Origin: a phage
Direction: 5' to 3' (one strand)
Sequence record: OZ413487.1
Length of the DNA stretch: 64,000 nt
This document shows, piece after piece, positions 3,414 through 38,078 of the stretch. The position numbers were made by a program, and so were the translations under genes. Numbering within the stretch: the first letter of the stretch is position 1; each line of letters opens with the position of its first letter. The notes under the pieces are model-generated. The model worked only from the letters and a program-made list of their open reading frames with translations, ran no database searches and was not told where the DNA came from.

Positions 3414-5485
3414 TGGCAACAGCTATTTTTAAACCTTACCGTGATTACTCTACAATGGCTGCACGGTTTCATTACCGCACAGTTCAGGATACTGCAGTTC
3501 CTGGTAGGGATTATAATCATGTTGAGGGTGATGTAACTATCCCAATTGGGGCAACCAGTATTGAGATCCCAGTGGAAATTGTTGACAAATTACCCAACAG
3601 GTTGCCAAGAAGCTTCTTTATGGAGTTTTCATCAAAATCTCAAGGGGTGATGATTGGAACACAAAGGGCGAAATGTACAATAGTTTCAGATGAGAATCTT
3701 GACAGGATATCTTGGGATACTGTCGAGGAGAGAATGTTTCACCCAAGATATTGGGTTACATCTACCCAGCAGACTGAAAGCACCTGTATTGTTGCAGATA
3801 ATAACTGTTGTATTAACCGTTTAGTGTCAAGAACATATGGAGGTATGGCTGGGTGCATTTGGGAAACAGTTGACAAGTATGACCATTTCGGTATTGGGTT
3901 TGATGATCATTATGAGATGAGAAATACCAAGCTTTGGTTCAGAATGTCAATAACCAACGCCAGCAACTTCTCCACTCCTGAAAAGATGATTATGACTGTA
4001 GACCTTGTTGATGGCACAATCATCTATGTTCCTTTAGCTCAATATGCTGTCAGCATCTCAGAGGATAAGAATGTTGCAGAAATTCATATTGATTTCGAGG
4101 ACTGCGTCGGGATGGACCAGAACAACAATATGATGGGTGTTGATCCTCGACAGGTGAGAAGGATTTTAATACCGCTTATGCCTAAAGATTGGGTAAGCAA
4201 TAGCACAAACCCAAGAACGGAAAATGTAGAGTGTGAGTTGCGCCTAGATCTGCTTCAGCCAGACACAGGCTGGAAAATGATGCAACTTAACAATATTCAG
4301 GTGAAAGAACACGACGTTGGGATCTGCACAGCATATGACGATATGTGGAACGTGTCTCCTTTAAGGGTGTTGAACAATATCAAGCGTCTGGGCTATACCG
4401 GAACCATAAACCATTATGTTGGTATGAGTCATTATTATGACTACACATGGTCAGGAACTCAATGGTCTATAAACAGAACAGGAGCGCTAAACGCTGCAGC
4501 TTATAAATGGCATGATGATTTTATGTACAATGCCAAACGACATAACTTCGACGTTATGCAATCTGTAAGTTTTGAGCTTTTCAGCGATGCCTGCCCGTTG
4601 GAATGGACCCAAAGAGACTGGAACGATAACTACGCTAAAACAGGGTATACACCTTGTAGCTACCTCCTGTCTCCAACCATTGAAGAGGGTATGAATTTCC
4701 TTACTGCAGTATTTAAGAATTTTGCATCAGCCGCTATGAGAAACAACCTGCCAGTGATTATGCAGGTTGGTGAACCGTGGTGGTGGTACAATACCGATAC
4801 TCGTAGACCTTGTATTTATGATTACCCTACAAAGCAGGCGTTTTATGATGAGACAGGTGAGTATGCATTAGATATTGGGACTATTGACGATCCTAAAACT
4901 GGCGGTGTTTACGACAAGTATGTAGCATTTTGTCGTGGTAAGCTTGGCGCTCGTATTGCGGCTATTTCAAAGGCAATAAAGGCACACGCTGCATCAGCTC
5001 AGATGACAGCTCTACTGTTTTTCCCAACCATTATGGAAACCGAGCTTACGCAAAAGCTTAACCTTGCTGACCAATATAAAAAGGAAGCAGGTGCTCTTGA
5101 TTTCTTCTGCACCGAGTGCTACGATTGGGTGATGCAGGGAGGTATTGAAAAGGCAAAAGAGTCTGTAAACATACCTATCGTTAAGTTAGGTTGGCAACCG
5201 TCTGAAATACAATACCTTGCAGGGTTCGTTCCTAGTAAAGAGCTTGCTCCGGTATATGGTTACGACCCAACCAGGAATTACCAAGAATTTTTATGGAGAT
5301 GTATTTGCGGAAACATGGCAACTATAGAGTATAGATATCCTGAGGTAAAACAGTATGTGTGGGCATACCCGCAAGTAATGTCTGACAGCATCACTGTTAC
5401 CGCTAGAGATTCTACCGTGCTTCATATGGGGCAGGTTGCTCTGAAAGGGTATGTAGAAGATGTTGTCCCGCCAGACTTCTCATAA
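3413..5485 (+). CDS. putative tail or baseplate structural protein (690 aa)
   Basis: Long ORF with start overlapping the upstream stop (ATGA), inside the fiber/baseplate operon. No recognisable catalytic motif. Confidence 0.6.
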   Translation: MATAIFKPYRDYSTMAARFHYRTVQDTAVPGRDYNHVEGDVTIPIGATSIEIPVEIVDKLPNRLPRSFFMEFSSKSQGVMIGTQRAKCTIVSDENLDRISWDTVEERMFHPRYWVTSTQQTESTCIVADNNCCINRLVSRTYGGMAGCIWETVDKYDHFGIGFDDHYEMRNTKLWFRMSITNASNFSTPEKMIMTVDLVDGTIIYVPLAQYAVSISEDKNVAEIHIDFEDCVGMDQNNNMMGVDPRQVRRILIPLMPKDWVSNSTNPRTENVECELRLDLLQPDTGWKMMQLNNIQVKEHDVGICTAYDDMWNVSPLRVLNNIKRLGYTGTINHYVGMSHYYDYTWSGTQWSINRTGALNAAAYKWHDDFMYNAKRHNFDVMQSVSFELFSDACPLEWTQRDWNDNYAKTGYTPCSYLLSPTIEEGMNFLTAVFKNFASAAMRNNLPVIMQVGEPWWWYNTDTRRPCIYDYPTKQAFYDETGEYALDIGTIDDPKTGGVYDKYVAFCRGKLGARIAAISKAIKAHAASAQMTALLFFPTIMETELTQKLNLADQYKKEAGALDFFCTECYDWVMQGGIEKAKESVNIPIVKLGWQPSEIQYLAGFVPSKELAPVYGYDPTRNYQEFLWRCICGNMATIEYRYPEVKQYVWAYPQVMSDSITVTARDSTVLHMGQVALKGYVEDVVPPDFS

Positions 5486-20784: not shown

Positions 20785-22266
20785 TTACTTAGCGTACTCG
20801 ATTAATTCCACAGTTTTCCCAAAGCTCGGGATATAATTTTTATTATACCCTTCGGTGAGAACCCATAAAGTATCGTACTTTTTCCACTTGTTGTCAACAG
20901 CCTTTTGTTCAAAGTTATGCTCAAAGTATAGGTCGGTCAGGACGATGACATCTTTTGCATTTGGTATGTTGGCATCCAGATACTCGAACACGCAAGCAGC
21001 TGTTGTGCCCCATGTTGAGTGGACCTCATAGTTAATCATCTCATCGATGTTACCGCGAGTGTATACTTTAACCTCTCCAACCTCCGTTGACCAACAGAAC
21101 ATAGTAACCTTAAACTCTTTATACAAATTGCACAACCCGGTGATCTCATTGAACATTTTCTTTAAAGTTCTTTGTGAGATCGACCCAGAAACGTCTAAAG
21201 CCACTACAATATCTATAGTGTTTTCCGGATTACGACCAGGAACAATAACGTGTTGATTCTTGTTTATAGCTCCAACTTTTCGCATTGTGGTGGTCAAAGA
21301 CCCAGATCGGCGACCAGGTTTTCTGTAGGTTAACTCAGCCTTTCTTTTAGATAACATACGTTGCTTAATAATATCTATATAATTGATTACAGGCTTGCCT
21401 CTGTTTTTGACAAACTCGCGCACCGCCTCGGGGCAACGACCTCCTGAAGCTTGCATTGCTGCTTCCAACATGTCACCAGAGTCCTGCATGGCCTGATCTT
21501 TGTCAGATTGACTGATTACTGGTTGCGGCTGATCATACCCCATAGCCTTTCCAAGATCATCACTAGTGCCACCGTTCCCGCTCATGTGATCATCGGTTTG
21601 TCGTTTATCTCCTTGGGAGTTCTCACCTTTACCGTTCTTACTTTTACCGTTATTCTGATCTCTTTGCTTATCAAGAACTGCATAGACGTTCTCAGCAATC
21701 CATCCATGAAACCTCATGTCGCAGTAGCAATTAGCTAAGAAGCCAAAAGGCTTACCTTTTACGAACTCAGTGCTTTTCCCCTTCGGGAAGAAAACACAAG
21801 GAGGCTTACTAAAGTCAACCACAAGACCTGTGTTGATAACGTGATCACAAGCAATATTGAACAGTTCCGGCTCAAAGCTTTTACCACGGACCAGATGATC
21901 ACAGATAATATGCCCCACCTCATGTGACAGAAGAAAGGCCACCTCTTTCACAGATTTTGGGGAATAGAAAACCTCAGCCATCTCAAACTGCTTGTCAGTC
22001 AGAGATGCTTTAAGAATGGTTTTACGCTCATCCGCCAACCCCATAATGAACTCAGGGCTGTAGTAGATGCGTTTATGGTCGGTTGCCATGGTGGAGCACC
22101 ATGTGTGGTTTTCTACGAACTGCAACCCTGACAGTAGTGTGCCATAAAACGGCAGCTTTTCAAGGAGATACATACGTGCAGCCTGCAACATTCTCAGGGC
22201 ATCATCTTTCTGTGAGGCAATGATTTCTGAACTTCTGCTATCCATTAAAACTCCAGAAGGGGCCAT
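20785..22266 (-). CDS. VWA-domain protein with N-terminal HExxH metallopeptidase-like domain
   Basis: HExxH motif (LSHEVGHIICDH) in the N-terminal half and a MIDAS-type DxSGS motif (VVALDVSGSIS) in the C-terminal von Willebrand A-like half. Confidence 0.65.
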   Translation of the reverse strand: MAPSGVLMDSRSSEIIASQKDDALRMLQAARMYLLEKLPFYGTLLSGLQFVENHTWCSTMATDHKRIYYSPEFIMGLADERKTILKASLTDKQFEMAEVFYSPKSVKEVAFLLSHEVGHIICDHLVRGKSFEPELFNIACDHVINTGLVVDFSKPPCVFFPKGKSTEFVKGKPFGFLANCYCDMRFHGWIAENVYAVLDKQRDQNNGKSKNGKGENSQGDKRQTDDHMSGNGGTSDDLGKAMGYDQPQPVISQSDKDQAMQDSGDMLEAAMQASGGRCPEAVREFVKNRGKPVINYIDIIKQRMLSKRKAELTYRKPGRRSGSLTTTMRKVGAINKNQHVIVPGRNPENTIDIVVALDVSGSISQRTLKKMFNEITGLCNLYKEFKVTMFCWSTEVGEVKVYTRGNIDEMINYEVHSTWGTTAACVFEYLDANIPNAKDVIVLTDLYFEHNFEQKAVDNKWKKYDTLWVLTEGYNKNYIPSFGKTVELIEYAK

Positions 22267-34466: not shown

Positions 34467-36890
34467 ATGAGCATGTGGTCGTTCGACTTTGAGTCATCCG
34501 GTTTGCTGGAAGACCCAGATCTTTATTATCACTGCGGCCTGTTTAAAGAGCTGAATAAGAACCGTTTTATGCTGTTCCTTCCTCTAAATGACCGCACACA
34601 CTACTCCGAGGAGGATATAGAAAAGGCTAAGAACTTCATTCTGGCAAAGAAAACTCTTTATAAAGATTTTGAAGTTCGCATAGCAGATTTTTCAGAGTTG
34701 GAAGGTTGGCTTACAGGAAATTCTGACTGGTCACCAACAGCTTTGAACTGCCATAACTGCTACAGTTATGACTTTATGCTGATGGAAAGATTATCTGGTA
34801 TTCATTTTGATATGTTCCGTGATCCTAAATGTATGGGGACTATCAACGATCACCAGGTTAACCTGTTTGATACGTTGGCGATGAGCCGAATCTTGTGGCC
34901 TGATCGCCCTTTACCAAAAGGTTGTCCGGACTCTGTATTCAACCCGGTTACTAAGAAAATGCAGCCTGTTGGTCCTCACGGCCTTATGGCATGGGGCTAC
35001 GCCCTTGGTAACCAGAAAGTTCAAATTGATGACTGGCGCGATCTTCCGTTGTGGAAGTATGTGGATCGTGTATTCGAGGACGTTATCATCCAGGAGCTGC
35101 TCTGGAAAGAGCTGGTAGCGGAATCAAAAGGTGTATTCTACGGCAAATCTGACATGCAGAACTTTATGTACGATCCGGCCAAAGAGAAGCCGAAAGGGTT
35201 CAAGAAGATCACCTGGAAGAACGCATTACGTCGAGGCATGCTGCAGCACTTCCTGATGGAGCTGCAGGCCCGTCAGGGTGTATACTTCGACATAGATGGA
35301 GCTATTGCTTTACGTGACCGTTGCGATGCGTGGATGAAAGAAATCGCTGATCGTGTTGAACCACAACTACCTTTAAAAGAGCTGTCAATGTCTCAGCGGC
35401 CCAAGTTCCCTGAAAAGCCGTTTAACCAAGACGGGACAATCTCTAATAATGGTTGGAAATGGTTAAAAGATAAGCTTGGCTATCCTGTAGACATGAGTGC
35501 TTTAGAGTTCAAAGCCCTGCCTAAGCGAGCATTTACCTCTACAGGAGATGTCAGCAAGATGGGGATAAAATGGTGTGAAGAGATGGGCTGCAAAGACCCC
35601 GATAAGATGGCTGATTTCTTGAGAGGCTATATTAAGGGCACCTCCACACCACAACCCTTACCTAAAGAGCTGATGGATCAGGCAATAAGTGATCTGCAGC
35701 AGAAGCGAATGCCTGACTGCAAGATACCTATGAAAATCAGCAATCAGGACGACATCAAGCGATACCTAATCAGTGCTGGTTGGCTCCCAACAATGTGGAG
35801 AACTAAAGATGTAACTAAAGACAGCAAGAAGAAAGCTTTACCTGATGCAGATGTTGATGCACGAGTATATGCATATATGGACGAGCTTTTGGAGTCAGAG
35901 TATTGTGACCTAATTATCAACTTCTGGAACAAAACTGATGCTAAGTTCCAGACAACCGTGCACAAGTTCCGAAGCTTTCCTAACTCCGAAAGGATTAAAA
36001 AGGAAGTATTCGGGAAAATACGTAGAAAAGCCAGGGCACTTATTACTTCTCCGCAACTGAAAGATACGTTTGGACACCTATGCCCAAATCTTGAAAAATT
36101 GAACGGAGAGATGGCTAAAGATATCGTCTTGTGGTTATCATTGCGAAACCGCAGATCGGTCCTTGATCCAATCAAGGAGGATAAGGTTGATACTGGTCTT
36201 CTTAATCACCCACGTTTGAAGATTGACCATAAGCTTCCTGCTAAAAGCTCTGGATTAACAAACACTTCCAGACAGAAACACAGTATTTGTGCAAACATGC
36301 CTAAACCATCTCCTAAAGTAGTTATGGGTAAAGAGATGCGTAGTCTGTGGGGTGTTCCTCCAGGATACTTTGAGATCGGTATTGACGGGTCCAACTTAGA
36401 GCAGCTCATCGGGGCTTGGGGTGCCTTTGAGTTCGACAACGGCTTGTATTATGATGTTGTAAGTAACGGAGACGCACACCAAAACAATGCTGAGGCATAT
36501 ACAAAAGTGGCAGGCAGAGAGGTGTCCCGTAACGACGGTAAACCTATCACGTATGGGGTTATGTACGGGGCACAAAAAGATAAAGTTGCAGATATGCTGG
36601 ACATCTCCCCAGAGTTGGGACAAAGGGTAATCGATGCACTCTGGGATGCCAACCCAGGTCTTAAGGGGCGCAAAGAGGATCTGGAGAAATTCTGGGAAGC
36701 AACAGGTAAGAAGTTTATCTACTCTTTTGATGGTCATGCTATCTGGACCCGATCTAAACACTCTTTACTTAATGCATACCAACAAAATGGCGGTGCATCG
36801 TTGTGTGACTTAGTTGGAATACTCATGCACCACCAGATGGTGAAGCGTGGGTGGTACGATGAAGGTGTTCGTCGTATTATTTATTACCAT
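34467..36890 (+). CDS. family A DNA polymerase (T7 gp5-like), exon 1 (ends at the His codon of the HDE motif)
   Basis: 3'-5' exo motifs (FDFESSGL, YSYDFM), HGLMAWGYALG (compare T7 HALEAWGYRLG), polymerase motif A (GIDGSNLEQL), motif B (RNDGKPITYGVMYG) and QQNGGASLCDL. The reading frame hits a stop two codons after ...IIYYH. Confidence 0.8.
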
Positions 36891-37166
36891 AAATAACATT
36901 GTGGCTTCATAGAGTAATCTATGTCGAATAACCTCTTTAACTGCGGGAAGCCTAAACCTTATGGCAAGGTAATCCGCAACGAAGCGCTCAAAAGAGCGAA
37001 CGCTCAGAGGCCATTCCGAAAGGAAGTAGACCAGCAAGTGCGGTCGAAATGGGAGGATTCCTGTGGTTGCTTATCATAGGAATATGAGATGGTCCGATCC
37101 TACGTGAAAACGTATGGCTATGCACGTAATGGTGCGGGGTAGCTTAACGACCTACCTGAACTATTG
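36891..37166 (+). other. intervening sequence in the DNA polymerase gene; candidate group I self-splicing intron
   Basis: 276 nt with no credible ORF. The 5' exon ends in U (CAU), the insert ends in G (...CUAUUG), and a GUGG near its 5' end can pair with exon CCAU to form P1 with a U-G wobble. Joining the flanks restores IIYYH-DEYQLQV. Confidence 0.6.
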
Positions 37167-37520
37167 GATGAGTACCAACTTCAAGTGCCTGACACACCGA
37201 AGTATAAGACTGTGTACACCTTCGACACAATTGAAGAACTGGAAGCATTTAAGGCAGAGCAGGAAGCCAAACTTCATGTGTTCGACGGTCATAAGTACAA
37301 AAAGGCACGCAAGGATGAGGACGGAAACGAAGTGGTTGACAGAGACGGAAACACGGTGTACGATCCTATCCTGAACGATGACGGAAAGCTTGAACTTATC
37401 TGGAGCCCTGTGGGTGAAATGGTGGTACATTGCTTCTGGCAAGCTTCTAAAATGATGGGAGTCCCGTTCCAGATCACAGGTGAATACTTGTGTGGTCGTA
37501 ATTGGGGTGATTGTCACTAA
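37167..37520 (+). CDS. family A DNA polymerase, exon 2 (C-terminal segment)
   Basis: Begins with DE, completing HDE. Ends ...ITGEYLCGRNWGDCH, like the T7 gp5 C-terminus (...GKMGPNWAICH). No RBS or ATG of its own. Confidence 0.7.
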   Translation, partial: DEYQLQVPDTPKYKTVYTFDTIEELEAFKAEQEAKLHVFDGHKYKKARKDEDGNEVVDRDGNTVYDPILNDDGKLELIWSPVGEMVVHCFWQASKMMGVPFQITGEYLCGRNWGDCH

Positions 37521-37569
37521 TGTAAACTATCAACACATGGAAGTGTTGTTGAGCAAAGAGGAGACTTTT

Positions 37570-37854
37570 ATGGTAGTAGAACCAACAAAAACATTTACAT
37601 CCATGACTATCCCTGTTATTATGCAGGTGGAGTGTGTTCAGGTATCTCAAGTGTGGCCTGGCACCAAAATCCCAACAGGGCCTGATTTCTTTCAGGTTGG
37701 GAAAGTGTACAATGTCTGGAAGGCACCAGATTGTTACCCTTTCATTAAAGATGACCGTGGGATGCTGTGGTACCTTGGAAATGACTTGACACTGCACCTT
37801 GGGAATACTATTATTGCAGTATTCAGACTTAACAAGAAGGAGACCGATCAATGA
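37570..37854 (+). CDS. small protein, paralogue family member (FxxGKxY ... DDxG.W motif)
   Basis: ATG at 37570 after AGAGGAGA. Carries FQVGKVYNVW ... KDDRGMLWYL. Confidence 0.55.
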   Translation: MVVEPTKTFTSMTIPVIMQVECVQVSQVWPGTKIPTGPDFFQVGKVYNVWKAPDCYPFIKDDRGMLWYLGNDLTLHLGNTIIAVFRLNKKETDQ

Positions 37855-38078
37855 CGACTTTGGTTAAAGCTACCTTTGTAGAAGAAAAGATGACAGACCT
37901 GTCATTCTTTAAAGAAGGAAAGACCTACGAGGTTTATTACGATAAAGCTCGTGCAAACAAAATGATTAAAGACGAGGAAGGGGTTGCCTGGTATATCTCT
38001 CACCTGGCAAACGGTGAGTATCATATCTACGGAACCACTTTGCTTGCCAAGTTTGTAGTTGTTGAAGAGGACCTATGA
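37851..38078 (+). CDS. small protein, paralogue family member
   Basis: FKEGKTYEVYY ... KDEEGVAWYI; ATGA coupling. Confidence 0.55.
   Translation: MTTLVKATFVEEKMTDLSFFKEGKTYEVYYDKARANKMIKDEEGVAWYISHLANGEYHIYGTTLLAKFVVVEEDL

Follow-up and report, generated by a model that had tools for sequence, protein, structure and literature searches.

The introns of the T7-like phages phiI and W31 lie in family A DNA polymerase genes at the motif C His (E. coli Pol I position 881), and their published description assigns them to subgroup IA2, with helices P7.1 and P7.2 joined by GUA and an HNH ORF in P6a (PMC3428280). The SPO1, SP82, Bastille, and Pf-WMP3 introns (I-HmuI, I-HmuII, I-BasI, and I-PfoP3I) are likewise IA2 introns at highly conserved catalytic-site codons of phage family A polymerase genes, although they sit at position 674, in the fingers, rather than at 881, and encode nicking HNH endonucleases. 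In Pectobacterium phage vB_PatM_CB7 (Certrevirus, Vequintavirinae), a 687-nt polymerase intron with a 127-aa HNH ORF lies between CB7_51 and CB7_49, and its splicing in vivo was demonstrated by RT-PCR and Sanger sequencing (PMC7344957). CB7 has a second polymerase intron upstream. A DNA polymerase "disrupted by predicted intron sequences" has also been mentioned (PMC6658697), while the rV5 paper reports introns only in the terminase and gives a polymerase of 775 aa (PMC3606486). In GenBank, the polymerase of phages LL12 (MH491969) and MaxTheCat (MZ501094) is annotated as a two-piece join, in LL12 with the remark [quoted passage not shown] and the rV5 RefSeq record lays two hypothetical ORFs over the intron. 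None of the LL12, MaxTheCat, and rV5 records states the class or structure of the intron or reports on its splicing.

Here, we analyzed a 64,000-nt stretch of phage DNA (the window), which comes from an rV5-like coliphage (Vequintavirus). An earlier note had interpreted an insert in its polymerase gene as a group I intron, and our results support that interpretation. We are highly confident that what interrupts the gene at motif C is a group I intron of subgroup IA2, 276 nt long, that is removed by splicing. The element itself is already known, in that the 276-nt sequence of LL12, MaxTheCat, rV5/V5, and relatives is 100% identical to that of the window. Compared with phiI and W31, the window intron shares the reported site, the family A polymerase host gene, the subgroup, and the GUA-joined P7.1 and P7.2; its sibling alleles share the HNH ORF in P6a, whereas the window copy is ORF-less and resides in a 137-kb myovirus rather than a podovirus. 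The CB7 site is the same as that of the window (…RRIIYYH/DEYQLEV, the slash marking the intron), and the two introns have in common the guide CAUUGUGG, a compact P7.1, the GUA linker, and P9. Their cores are about 80% identical over three local segments (49/62, 41/51, and 57/68 aligned positions), but the window intron differs in length and in lacking the HNH ORF, and the window gene is without the upstream intron. No similarity to the SPO1-type introns was found beyond a 46-nt match (intron nt 15 to 60) to Bacillus phage Goe21. The intron also occurs in Vibrio, Pectobacterium, and Pseudomonas phages.

Results

The polymerase gene and its two exons. All features described here lie on the plus strand. 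In the family A DNA polymerase gene, exon 1 spans 34467 to 36890 (808 codons), as read from the ORF list and the alignment to the T7 structure in the PDB, and begins at the start annotated in LL12, where it has an RBS. Motif A (GIDGSNLE) lies within it, and its final residue is the motif C His (…IIYYH). The ORF as it stands runs from 34467 to 36896 and ends in ...RGWYDEGVRRIIYYHK; the His codon CAT closes at 36890, and an in-frame UAA follows at 36894 to 36896, two codons beyond ...IIYYH. After a 276-nt insert (36891 to 37166), the frame resumes in exon 2 (37167 to 37520), which comprises 117 codons plus the stop at 37518 to 37520, opens GAT GAG TAC (DEYQLQV, the motif C Asp-Glu first), and closes ...CGRNWGDCH. 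These coordinates, together with the stop just after the 5' splice site, the U that ends exon 1 (36890), and the G that ends the insert (37166), reproduce base for base what had been claimed before. Joining 34467 to 36890 and 37167 to 37520 in silico yields an uninterrupted 925-codon ORF, and the intron is in phase 0.

Pfam DNA_pol_A matched exon 1 alone at an E value of 1.5e-6 and 27.9 bits, below the gathering score of 34.3. The spliced protein aligned to T7 DNA polymerase in the PDB with an E value of 7e-16 (phmmer), with iiyyHDEyql on mawvHDEiqv, YYHDE on WVHDE, and GIDGSNLE on GIDASGLE. Family A membership thus follows from the alignment of the acidic residues of motifs A and C to the solved T7 enzyme, and the proposed correspondence with the HDE of T7 gp5 is confirmed. 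The insertion point is the His/Asp boundary of motif C (T7 H653/D654; E. coli Pol I 881/882). The C-terminus, described earlier as canonical by comparison with T7 (…NWAICH), does end in ...CGRNWGDCH, but the T7 likeness was not recovered: exon 2 alone searched against the PDB gave only chance matches (E > 0.1). The polymerase of the relative L019 ends in …GSNWAECH.

The exon junction in intron-less relatives. The intron boundaries are fixed by intron-less alleles that read across the junction. Several phages without the intron, among them pangalan, Murica, and CarlMeissner, encode the 190-aa junction peptide in one piece, at 99.5 to 100% identity. In pangalan and Murica, which are close relatives, the two exons are contiguous and the predicted junction has 100% amino-acid identity, so that a comparison suggested in the earlier note turned out in its favor. 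The DNA junction of pangalan is TATTACCAT/GACGAA. The ligated mRNA of the window phage would read TATTACCAT-GATGAGTAC at the junction (also written TATTACCAT/GATGAGTACC), and the peptide across it would be ...IIYYHDEYQLQVPDTPK, including YYHDEYQ. All intron-plus alleles examined have CCAT/GATGA, with U as the last nucleotide of exon 1 (-1) and GAUGA as the first five of exon 2 (+1 to +5), whereas intron-less alleles have C at -1 in 10 of 16 cases.

We considered whether the polymerase could instead be truly split, with 808-aa and 117-aa products made separately without splicing and assembling as in Aeh1 NrdA/mobE. The rV5 RefSeq record does list two polymerase CDSs, with GTG 37185 as the start of the exon 2 product, and nonspliced split phage genes are known, including one HNH-interrupted gene in the CB7 paper for which splicing was not detectable (PMC7344957). 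The earlier description of the downstream segment as free of start signals holds for the RBS, since no Shine-Dalgarno-like motif is present upstream of exon 2 at 37131 to 37190. It does not hold for start codons, of which TTG 37164 and GTG 37185 are the only in-frame ones, both without an RBS. Tested for translation start signals of its own, the downstream half thus proved negative. Furthermore, the break falls within the catalytic HDE triplet, the exon nucleotides of P1 and P10 are invariant in intron-plus alleles only, and the homologous CB7 intron is spliced (PMC7344957). A split polymerase would also leave unexplained why a complete group I core should be under compensatory selection if it were never used. 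We therefore regard a split polymerase as very improbable and treat the insert as an intron.

Identification of the insert as a group I intron. The Rfam covariance model RF00028 (Intron_gpI) matched the insert over its full length (model positions 1 to 253) with a score of 64.7 bits and an E value of 4e-14, where the gathering score is 50, which was the outcome sought from a covariance-model check. This was the sole Rfam match in the window on both strands, even at E ≤ 0.1, and chance is excluded by that E value over the whole window and the uniqueness of the match. The introns of relatives score 70 to 91 bits against the same model. Further introns in the window, for instance in the terminase as in rV5, were not indicated by any Rfam match at E ≤ 0.1, and a tRNA scan of the whole window found no tRNA. 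The minimum free energy (MFE) z-score of the intron was -2.83, and thermodynamics alone is therefore weak evidence. A fold prediction had been suggested earlier for P3 to P7; the MFE fold gave the local hairpins P2, P4, P5, P6a, P7.1, P8, and P9 and missed the pseudoknot.

Other element types are accommodated less well. The insert is short and ORF-less, and the related phage 241Ecol014PP/JEP1 apparently has an intein elsewhere in its polymerase gene, which could suggest an intein, a group II intron, or, as in T4 gene 60, a segment skipped by translational bypass (hopping). However, the stop two codons into the insert and the absence of any frame open throughout exclude an intein, and no Pfam match was found. 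No Rfam group II family matched at E ≤ 0.1. To our knowledge, 276 nt far exceeds the gaps of known translational bypasses, and this reading was rejected for that length. The group I model accounts for all of the conservation, and the other three readings, refuted in silico, retain next to no probability.

Intron anatomy. Every canonical group I element, from P1 through P9.2 and including the P3/P7 pseudoknot, can be placed on the window sequence, an assignment established directly in this analysis. P1 (36887 to 36904), identified from the sequence, the invariance of the guide, and the exon context, pairs exon CCAU and intron AA (36887 to 36892) with UUGUGG (36899 to 36904). The GUGG at 36901 to 36904 (insert nt 11 to 14) pairs with exon CCAU as had been proposed, placing the wobble U36890.G36901 at the 5' splice site. 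The internal guide CAUUGUGG (36897 to 36904) serves P1 and, contiguously, the 4-bp P10, in which exon 2 GAUG pairs with CAUU at 36897 to 36900; guide residues A8 to C18 are invariant in 14 relatives. P2 (36908 to 36923) has 6 bp and a GUAA tetraloop and is 100% paired, with four of six pairs changed on both sides. The 5' strand of P3, CCUCUU (36932 to 36937), pairs with GGGAGG (37051 to 37056), with 96% pairing and 3 pairs changed on both sides. P4 (UGCGGG/UCCGCA, 36942 to 36978) encloses a short P5 (36950 to 36970), in which pair 61-79 is G-C in some alleles and C-G in others. P6/P6a (36980 to 37002) has the form CG..(CGCUC-AAAA-GAGCG)..CG; it is placed by covariation, with CGCUC/GAGCG in the window and CAUCC/GGAUG in relatives, and by the position of the HNH ORF in relatives.

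In the 3' half, the 5' strand of P7, GaGGCCA (37007 to 37013), pairs with UGGUCC (37090 to 37095), with 100% pairing and 2 pairs changed on both sides. A bulged A37008 precedes the G37009-C37094 pair, the guanosine-binding site predicted from its position, and P7 residues G119 and C204 are invariant across relatives. The region from 37014 to 37045 contains P7.1 (UUCC-GAAA-GGAA), the GUA linker (37026 to 37028), and P7.2 (GACC..GGUC plus GC/GC); P7.2 is 95% paired with 4 pairs changed on both sides, and G136 and U137 are invariant. Subgroup IA2 is distinguished by two additional helices, P7.1 and P7.2, that lie between P7 and P3' and are linked by G-U-A (PMC3428280), and the window intron is therefore IA2 by this one structural criterion from the literature. 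P8 (37058 to 37082; 10 bp, loop UGCUU) is 89% paired with 6 pairs changed on both sides. P9, with a GAAA tetraloop, P9.1 (37122 to 37135), and P9.2 (37138 to 37156) occupy 37099 to 37156 and are 98 to 100% paired, with 10 pairs changed on both sides. The terminal guanosine (omega-G, 37166) marks the 3' splice site and is invariant (G276, 14/14 relatives).

Covariation support. Covariation, likewise established here, was assessed in a MAFFT alignment of 14 same-site introns, with the structure drawn on the window sequence. Standard pairs made up 90.9% of 943 pair cells, compared to 36.8 to 40.9% when partners were slid by 1 to 3 columns, a control that favors the window given that the structure was drawn on it and that five of the sequences had their ORFs removed manually ahead of the alignment. 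Thirty-nine of 71 pairs were changed on both sides, and none of 500 shuffles reached any of five measures. The invariant residues include the guide, J3/4 A49 and A50, P7 G119/C204, J8/7 UGA, and omega-G. P5 and P6a are the least secure helices of the model: P6a is only 54% paired, the combined P4/P5 helix 86.4%, and pairs 61-107 and 64-104 of P5/P4 are unpaired in many of the 14 sequences. These low scores arise in part because MAFFT misaligns length-variable hairpins. The conserved core, comprising the P4-P6 and P3-P8 domains with the pseudoknot, is supported by compensatory change, and the P3, P4, P6, and P7 helices and the G-binding pair on which the earlier interpretation depended are all present with covariation support.

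Discussion

Group I chemistry suggests how the window intron would be removed. One pre-mRNA would be transcribed across exon 1, the intron, and exon 2, and the intron RNA would fold into P1 to P9.2 with the P3/P7 pseudoknot. At the G-C pair of P7, an exogenous guanosine would be bound and would attack the phosphate after U36890, the latter positioned by the U.G wobble of P1. Through P10, the guide CAUUGUGG would next position exon 2 (GAUG), omega-G37166 would occupy the guanosine site, and the 3'-OH of exon 1 would then attack the 3' splice site. Ligation would yield an mRNA (...IIYYH-DEYQLQV...) that encodes the 925-aa polymerase. On unspliced RNA, translation would halt at the UAA at 36894 to 36896, giving a protein without the catalytic Asp/Glu and the C-terminus. 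The intron is at least 99% identical across 23 phage records, and the allele is compatible with the polymerase being essential, given that rV5, LL12, MaxTheCat, and others are described as isolated phages.

We infer that the window copy is catalytic and self-sufficient. Efficient in vivo folding of some phage group I introns depends on translation or chaperones, and a genuine intron removed in vivo could be nonautonomous: it might depend on a protein or RNA chaperone or on translational coupling, and would then fail to self-splice under mild conditions in vitro. The P5 extension and P7.1 are much shorter in the window than in the 328-nt and HNH-bearing alleles, and support for P5 was weak in the covariation count. 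However, Vibrio phage relatives are shorter still (253 to 259 nt) yet score higher against RF00028 (70 to 77 bits). CB7, with an equally compact P7.1, splices in vivo (PMC7344957), and the IA2 polymerase introns of phiI, W31, and Pf-WMP3 self-splice under mild conditions (PMC3428280). Dependence on such help is accordingly improbable, and self-splicing is the reading that we favor.

The allele series established here comprises four states at one site: empty, ORF-less at 276 nt (the window), ORF-less at 311 to 329 nt, and about 842 to 851 nt with an HNH ORF. The ORF of these sibling alleles encodes 168 aa and lies in the P6 loop; its match to HNH_3 is weak (E = 6e-4, below the gathering score), and depositors annotate it as an HNH homing endonuclease. 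The absence of a homing endonuclease ORF from the window insert, as claimed before, is upheld, with the sole internal ORF (36921 to 37079, 52 aa) having no Pfam match. Pfam likewise matched neither of the two ORFs that follow the polymerase gene (37480 to 38075), and an endonuclease is thus neither concealed in the intron nor located next to the gene. The window copy is thus the ORF-less state of a mobile intron with HNH-bearing sibling alleles. Without an endonuclease gene it cannot drive its own homing, and it is therefore a group I intron but not an autonomous homing element. The sequence TATTACCATGACGAATATCAG is a candidate substrate for the 168-aa HNH protein, as against the intron-plus flanks.

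The intron is polymorphic among Vequintavirinae, and phages with 96 to 99% identity across the polymerase gene may have the empty, the ORF-less, or the HNH-plus allele. Of the flanking exon differences within ±60 nt, 5/7 are synonymous, ≤12 nt from the site. The intron is also mosaic, in that nearest relatives differ between its segments. We tentatively raise the idea, which we consider rather doubtful, that the ORF-less allele is a selected recombinant mosaic that shields the polymerase gene, perhaps spread in trans, rather than a decaying remnant. Such protection, we speculate, would be against the sibling HNH endonuclease during coinfection, through the occupied site and the exon codons GAT-GAG-TAC-CAA. 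Spread in trans ("collaborative homing") may occur via the endonucleases of sibling introns or free-standing HNH genes, which adjoin the polymerase gene in 241Ecol014PP, Vibrio phages, and L019.

In summary, the finding is correct but ordinary, given that public records already contain identical copies with an intron annotation, and it opens no new question. Its main import is for annotation: the rV5 reference and many relatives list two polymerase genes and overlay the intron with spurious "hypothetical proteins." The gene should be a joined CDS whose product is a polymerase of 925 aa, compared to 775 aa in the rV5 paper. The IA2 ribozymes of 250 to 330 nt found at this site could be small model introns. 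Collectively, the alleles of this single site illustrate neatly how the homing cycle looks in nature, running from the empty site through the HNH-bearing intron to a pair of ORF-less forms, with intervening mosaics.

Interruption of the polymerase gene

The exon 1 reading frame opens at 34467 and ends …RGWYDEGVRRIIYYH, with the His codon closing at 36890, and is followed directly by AAA and a UAA at 36894-36896. The frame restarts at 37167 (GAT GAG TAC…, DEYQLQV…) and runs to a C-terminus of …CGRNWGDCH, with its stop codon at 37518-37520. Once 34467-36890 and 37167-37520 are joined, 925 codons can be read without an internal stop, the insert lying in phase 0. All coordinates of the ORF break, the 276-nt insert, and the resumed frame claimed in an earlier note were borne out, as were its U at the end of exon 1, G at the end of the insert, and in-frame stop (this UAA) after the 5' splice site. 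Over this region the window shares 99% identity with rV5 (Vequintavirus) and with E. coli O157 typing phage 5. The spliced protein matched T7 DNA polymerase in the PDB (E 7e-16), with motif A GIDGSNLE aligned on GIDASGLE. Motif C aligned as iiyyHDEyql on mawvHDEiqv, in agreement with the proposed equivalence to the T7 HDE, and within motif C the insert therefore falls between His and Asp-Glu. We take E. coli Pol I position 881 to be the motif C His, in which case the insertion site is that of the T7-like phages phiI and W31. Their group I introns lie at position 881 (PMC3428280).

That the polymerase is genuinely split, with the RNA left unspliced, is extremely improbable, given that the break falls within HDE and that exon 2 is not preceded by an RBS. 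The earlier note was right that exon 2 has neither RBS nor ATG, and we found no Shine-Dalgarno-like motif upstream of it; it is not wholly without a start codon, as in-frame TTG (37164) and GTG (37185) are present. The in-frame stop, the absence of any group II match, and the length of the insert rule out an intein, a group II intron, and translational bypass.

Structure and covariation of the intron

The full length of Rfam model RF00028 (Intron_gpI) aligned to 36881-37116 with a score of 64.7 bits (E 4e-14; gathering score 50), which supports a group I core. No other Rfam match was found anywhere in the 64 kb of the window, even with the threshold loosened to E ≤ 0.1. Every group I element, as expected from the hallmarks claimed for the insert, could be placed on the sequence. 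P1 (36887-36904) pairs CCAUAA with UUGUGG, with a U.G wobble at the splice site, and the GUGG previously proposed to pair with exon CCAU is indeed complementary to it (insert nt 11-14). In P10, exon 2 GAUG pairs with CAUU of the guide (36897-36904), and this guide, CAUUGUGG, keeps both exons adjacent. P2 (36908-36923; 6 bp, GUAA loop) is followed by P3 (36932-36937 with 37051-37056, CCUCUU/GGGAGG), P4 (36942-36947 with 36973-36978, UGCGGG/UCCGCA), the short hairpin P5 (36950-36970), and P6/P6a (36980-37002, CG..[CGCUC-AAAA-GAGCG]..CG). P7 (37007-37013 with 37090-37095, GaGGCCA/UGGUCC) has a bulged A ahead of the G-C pair. P7.1 (37014-37025, UUCC-GAAA-GGAA) is linked via GUA (37026-37028) to P7.2 (37029-37045, GACC..GGUC plus GC/GC), a feature by which subgroup IA2 is assigned in the literature (PMC3428280). 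P8 (37058-37082, 10 bp), P9 (37099-37117, GAAA tetraloop), P9.1 (37122-37135, GCAC/GUGC), P9.2 (37138-37156, GGUAG/CUACC), and the terminal omega-G (37166) complete the intron.

The same intron family occupies this codon in other Vequintavirinae, including Avunavirus 19-1-2, in 140-kb Vibrio phages (K470 and IBT_VpB-34), and in several IMG/VR contigs. We aligned 14 same-site introns with MAFFT, after cutting out the internal ORF by hand in 5. Standard pairs filled 90.9% of 943 cells versus 36.8-40.9% with the 3' partners slid 1-3 columns, a control flattered by drawing the structure on the window sequence, which leaves compensatory counts unaffected. Both sides had changed in 39 of 71 pairs (121 cells), and none of 500 shuffles attained any of five measures. 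P2, P3, P4, P7, P7.2, P8, P9, P9.1, and P9.2 were each 89-100% paired with compensatory changes, which supports P3, P4, and P7 of the core. P6a (54%) and part of P5 scored weakly, partly because these hairpins vary in length and are misaligned by MAFFT; on visual inspection, P6a does show covariation (window, CGCUC/GAGCG; relatives, CAUCC/GGAUG and GGUAAGG/CCUUAUC). A ribozyme structure under selection also argues against a split polymerase.

Exon junction and proposed splicing

The predicted 190-aa junction peptide was found by tblastn as one unbroken 570-nt stretch at 99.5-100% identity in close intron-less relatives (pangalan, Murica, CarlMeissner, and "Campylobacter phage A12a," among others). 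The junction reads …ATCTATTACCAT GACGAATATCAG… in pangalan versus …ATTTATTACCAT[276 nt]GATGAGTACCAA… in the window. Within 60 nt on either side, the two differ at 7 positions, 5 of them synonymous and ≤12 nt from the site, a clustering that would be expected around a homing site; the differences also affect P10 nucleotides. Every intron-plus allele examined reads CCAT/GATGA (slash, insertion site). Among 16 intron-less alleles, the His codon is CAC in 11 (CAC/GAT in 10), which therefore have no U at -1, and 3 read CAT/GAC.

Pectobacterium phage CB7 (Certrevirus, same subfamily) has an intron between CB7_51 and CB7_49 exactly at …RRIIYYH/DEYQLEV. It shares the guide sequence, the compact P7.1-GUA-P7.2, and P9 with the window intron, at ~80% identity over three locally aligned segments. 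Its removal in infected cells was seen by RT-PCR and Sanger-sequenced cDNA (PMC7344957), which contradicts a split polymerase. CB7 also has a second HNH-containing intron (20811-21523) upstream in the gene, before …MYGAQ, where the window polymerase is unbroken (…ITYGVMYGAQKDK…).

Our data show the anatomy, covariation, junction, and polymorphism of the intron. From family membership and the CB7 experiment, we infer that it is also catalytic; splicing that is real but nonautonomous is unlikely. The gene would be transcribed with the intron included and the RNA would fold, after which exogenous guanosine held in P7 would drive cleavage after U36890. The guide would position exon 2 via P10, omega-G37166 would occupy the guanosine site, and ligation would yield mRNA encoding the 925-aa polymerase. 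Translation of unspliced RNA would end at 36894-36896, and the product would lack the motif C carboxylates and C-terminus.

Relation to existing annotation

The intron itself is not new. The LL12 and MaxTheCat records give the polymerase as a joined CDS with the identical intron (LL12 note, "intron-interrupted gene"), and the LL12 announcement describes a polymerase disrupted by a predicted intron (PMC6658697). For phiI and W31, insertion site and subgroup were reported in 2004, as relayed in PMC3428280. The present analysis contributes an explicit IA2 structure and its covariation, connects the intron to the one in CB7 whose splicing was shown by experiment, and sets out the allele series. 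Its use in practice lies in annotation correction: the rV5 RefSeq record (NC_011041) has the polymerase as two CDSs with a late start codon and "hypothetical proteins" gp222 and gp221 within or across the intron (3956-4114 and 4149-4409 in our rV5 sequence; window ~36921-37079 and ~37114-37374), all probably annotation artefacts. The rV5 paper gives terminase introns only and a 775-aa polymerase. Separately, 14-21 GenBank MG0656xx records labelled Campylobacter jejuni phages ("Campylobacter phage A142, A141, D1, C2 …") share 97-100% identity with E. coli Vequintavirus over the polymerase gene, intron included, and their host label looks doubtful.

Alleles and mobility

Other elements accompany the intron in relatives. 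Polymerase exon 1 of 241Ecol014PP (L003 ~3514-4482), and of JEP1, carries a 323-aa in-frame insertion, absent from the window polymerase, at window ~36479 after aa 671 (…SNGDAH). It starts CYSGDTQILT… and ends …VCGN then Cys, with a Pfam Hint_2 match (E 7e-5) below gathering score, and is probably an intein in a gene also holding a group I intron. Among phages with an ORF-less polymerase intron, several have a standalone HNH endonuclease gene directly 3' of the polymerase: 241Ecol014PP (L003 5544-6191, matching NUMOD4 and HNH_3) and the phage sequences L007 (894-1039), L008 (889-1023), and L019. Such an arrangement is compatible with trans ("collaborative") homing. No such gene was found downstream of the window polymerase, where ORFs at 37480-38075 have no Pfam match. 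The intron 3' ~80 nt (P7' to P9.2) is 79-85% identical across phages of quite different groups (PVP-SE1, Klebsiella VLCpiM5b, Pseudomonas SPA01, Vibrio 1.161.O, and Pseudaeromonas KLEP7), and sampled SPA01 relatives have uninterrupted polymerase genes, a pattern suggesting that the intron, or its 3' module, has spread horizontally. In Av-05 (KM190144), three places match the polymerase intron; its terminase large subunit intron (1501-1633) is 73% identical to nt 8-148, and a single phage thus holds related introns in different genes.

Four kinds of allele occur at the one site: empty, 276-nt, 311-329-nt ORF-less, and 842-851-nt ORF-bearing. The 276-nt form is present at ≥99% identity in 23 phage records; its sole internal ORF (52 aa) has no Pfam match, consistent with the claimed absence of a homing endonuclease ORF. 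The 311-329-nt form, with longer P5 and P7.1, occurs in JEP1, JLBYU08, 19-1-2, and L017. The longest form (I29, FV3-type, and L012-L016) carries a 168-aa ORF within the P6 loop, with a weak Pfam HNH_3 match (E 6e-4) and labelled HNH homing endonuclease by depositors; in phiI and W31 the ORF likewise lies in P6a. The nearest relatives of the window intron differ by segment (P1-P3, JLBYU08, 98%; P4-P6, L017, 71%; P8, L015, 82%; 3' 49 nt, JEP1, 100%), so that the alleles are mosaics, which implies that intron lineages sharing this site have recombined. Given this allele series and mosaicism, the window copy belongs to a mobile intron lineage but lacks the endonuclease.
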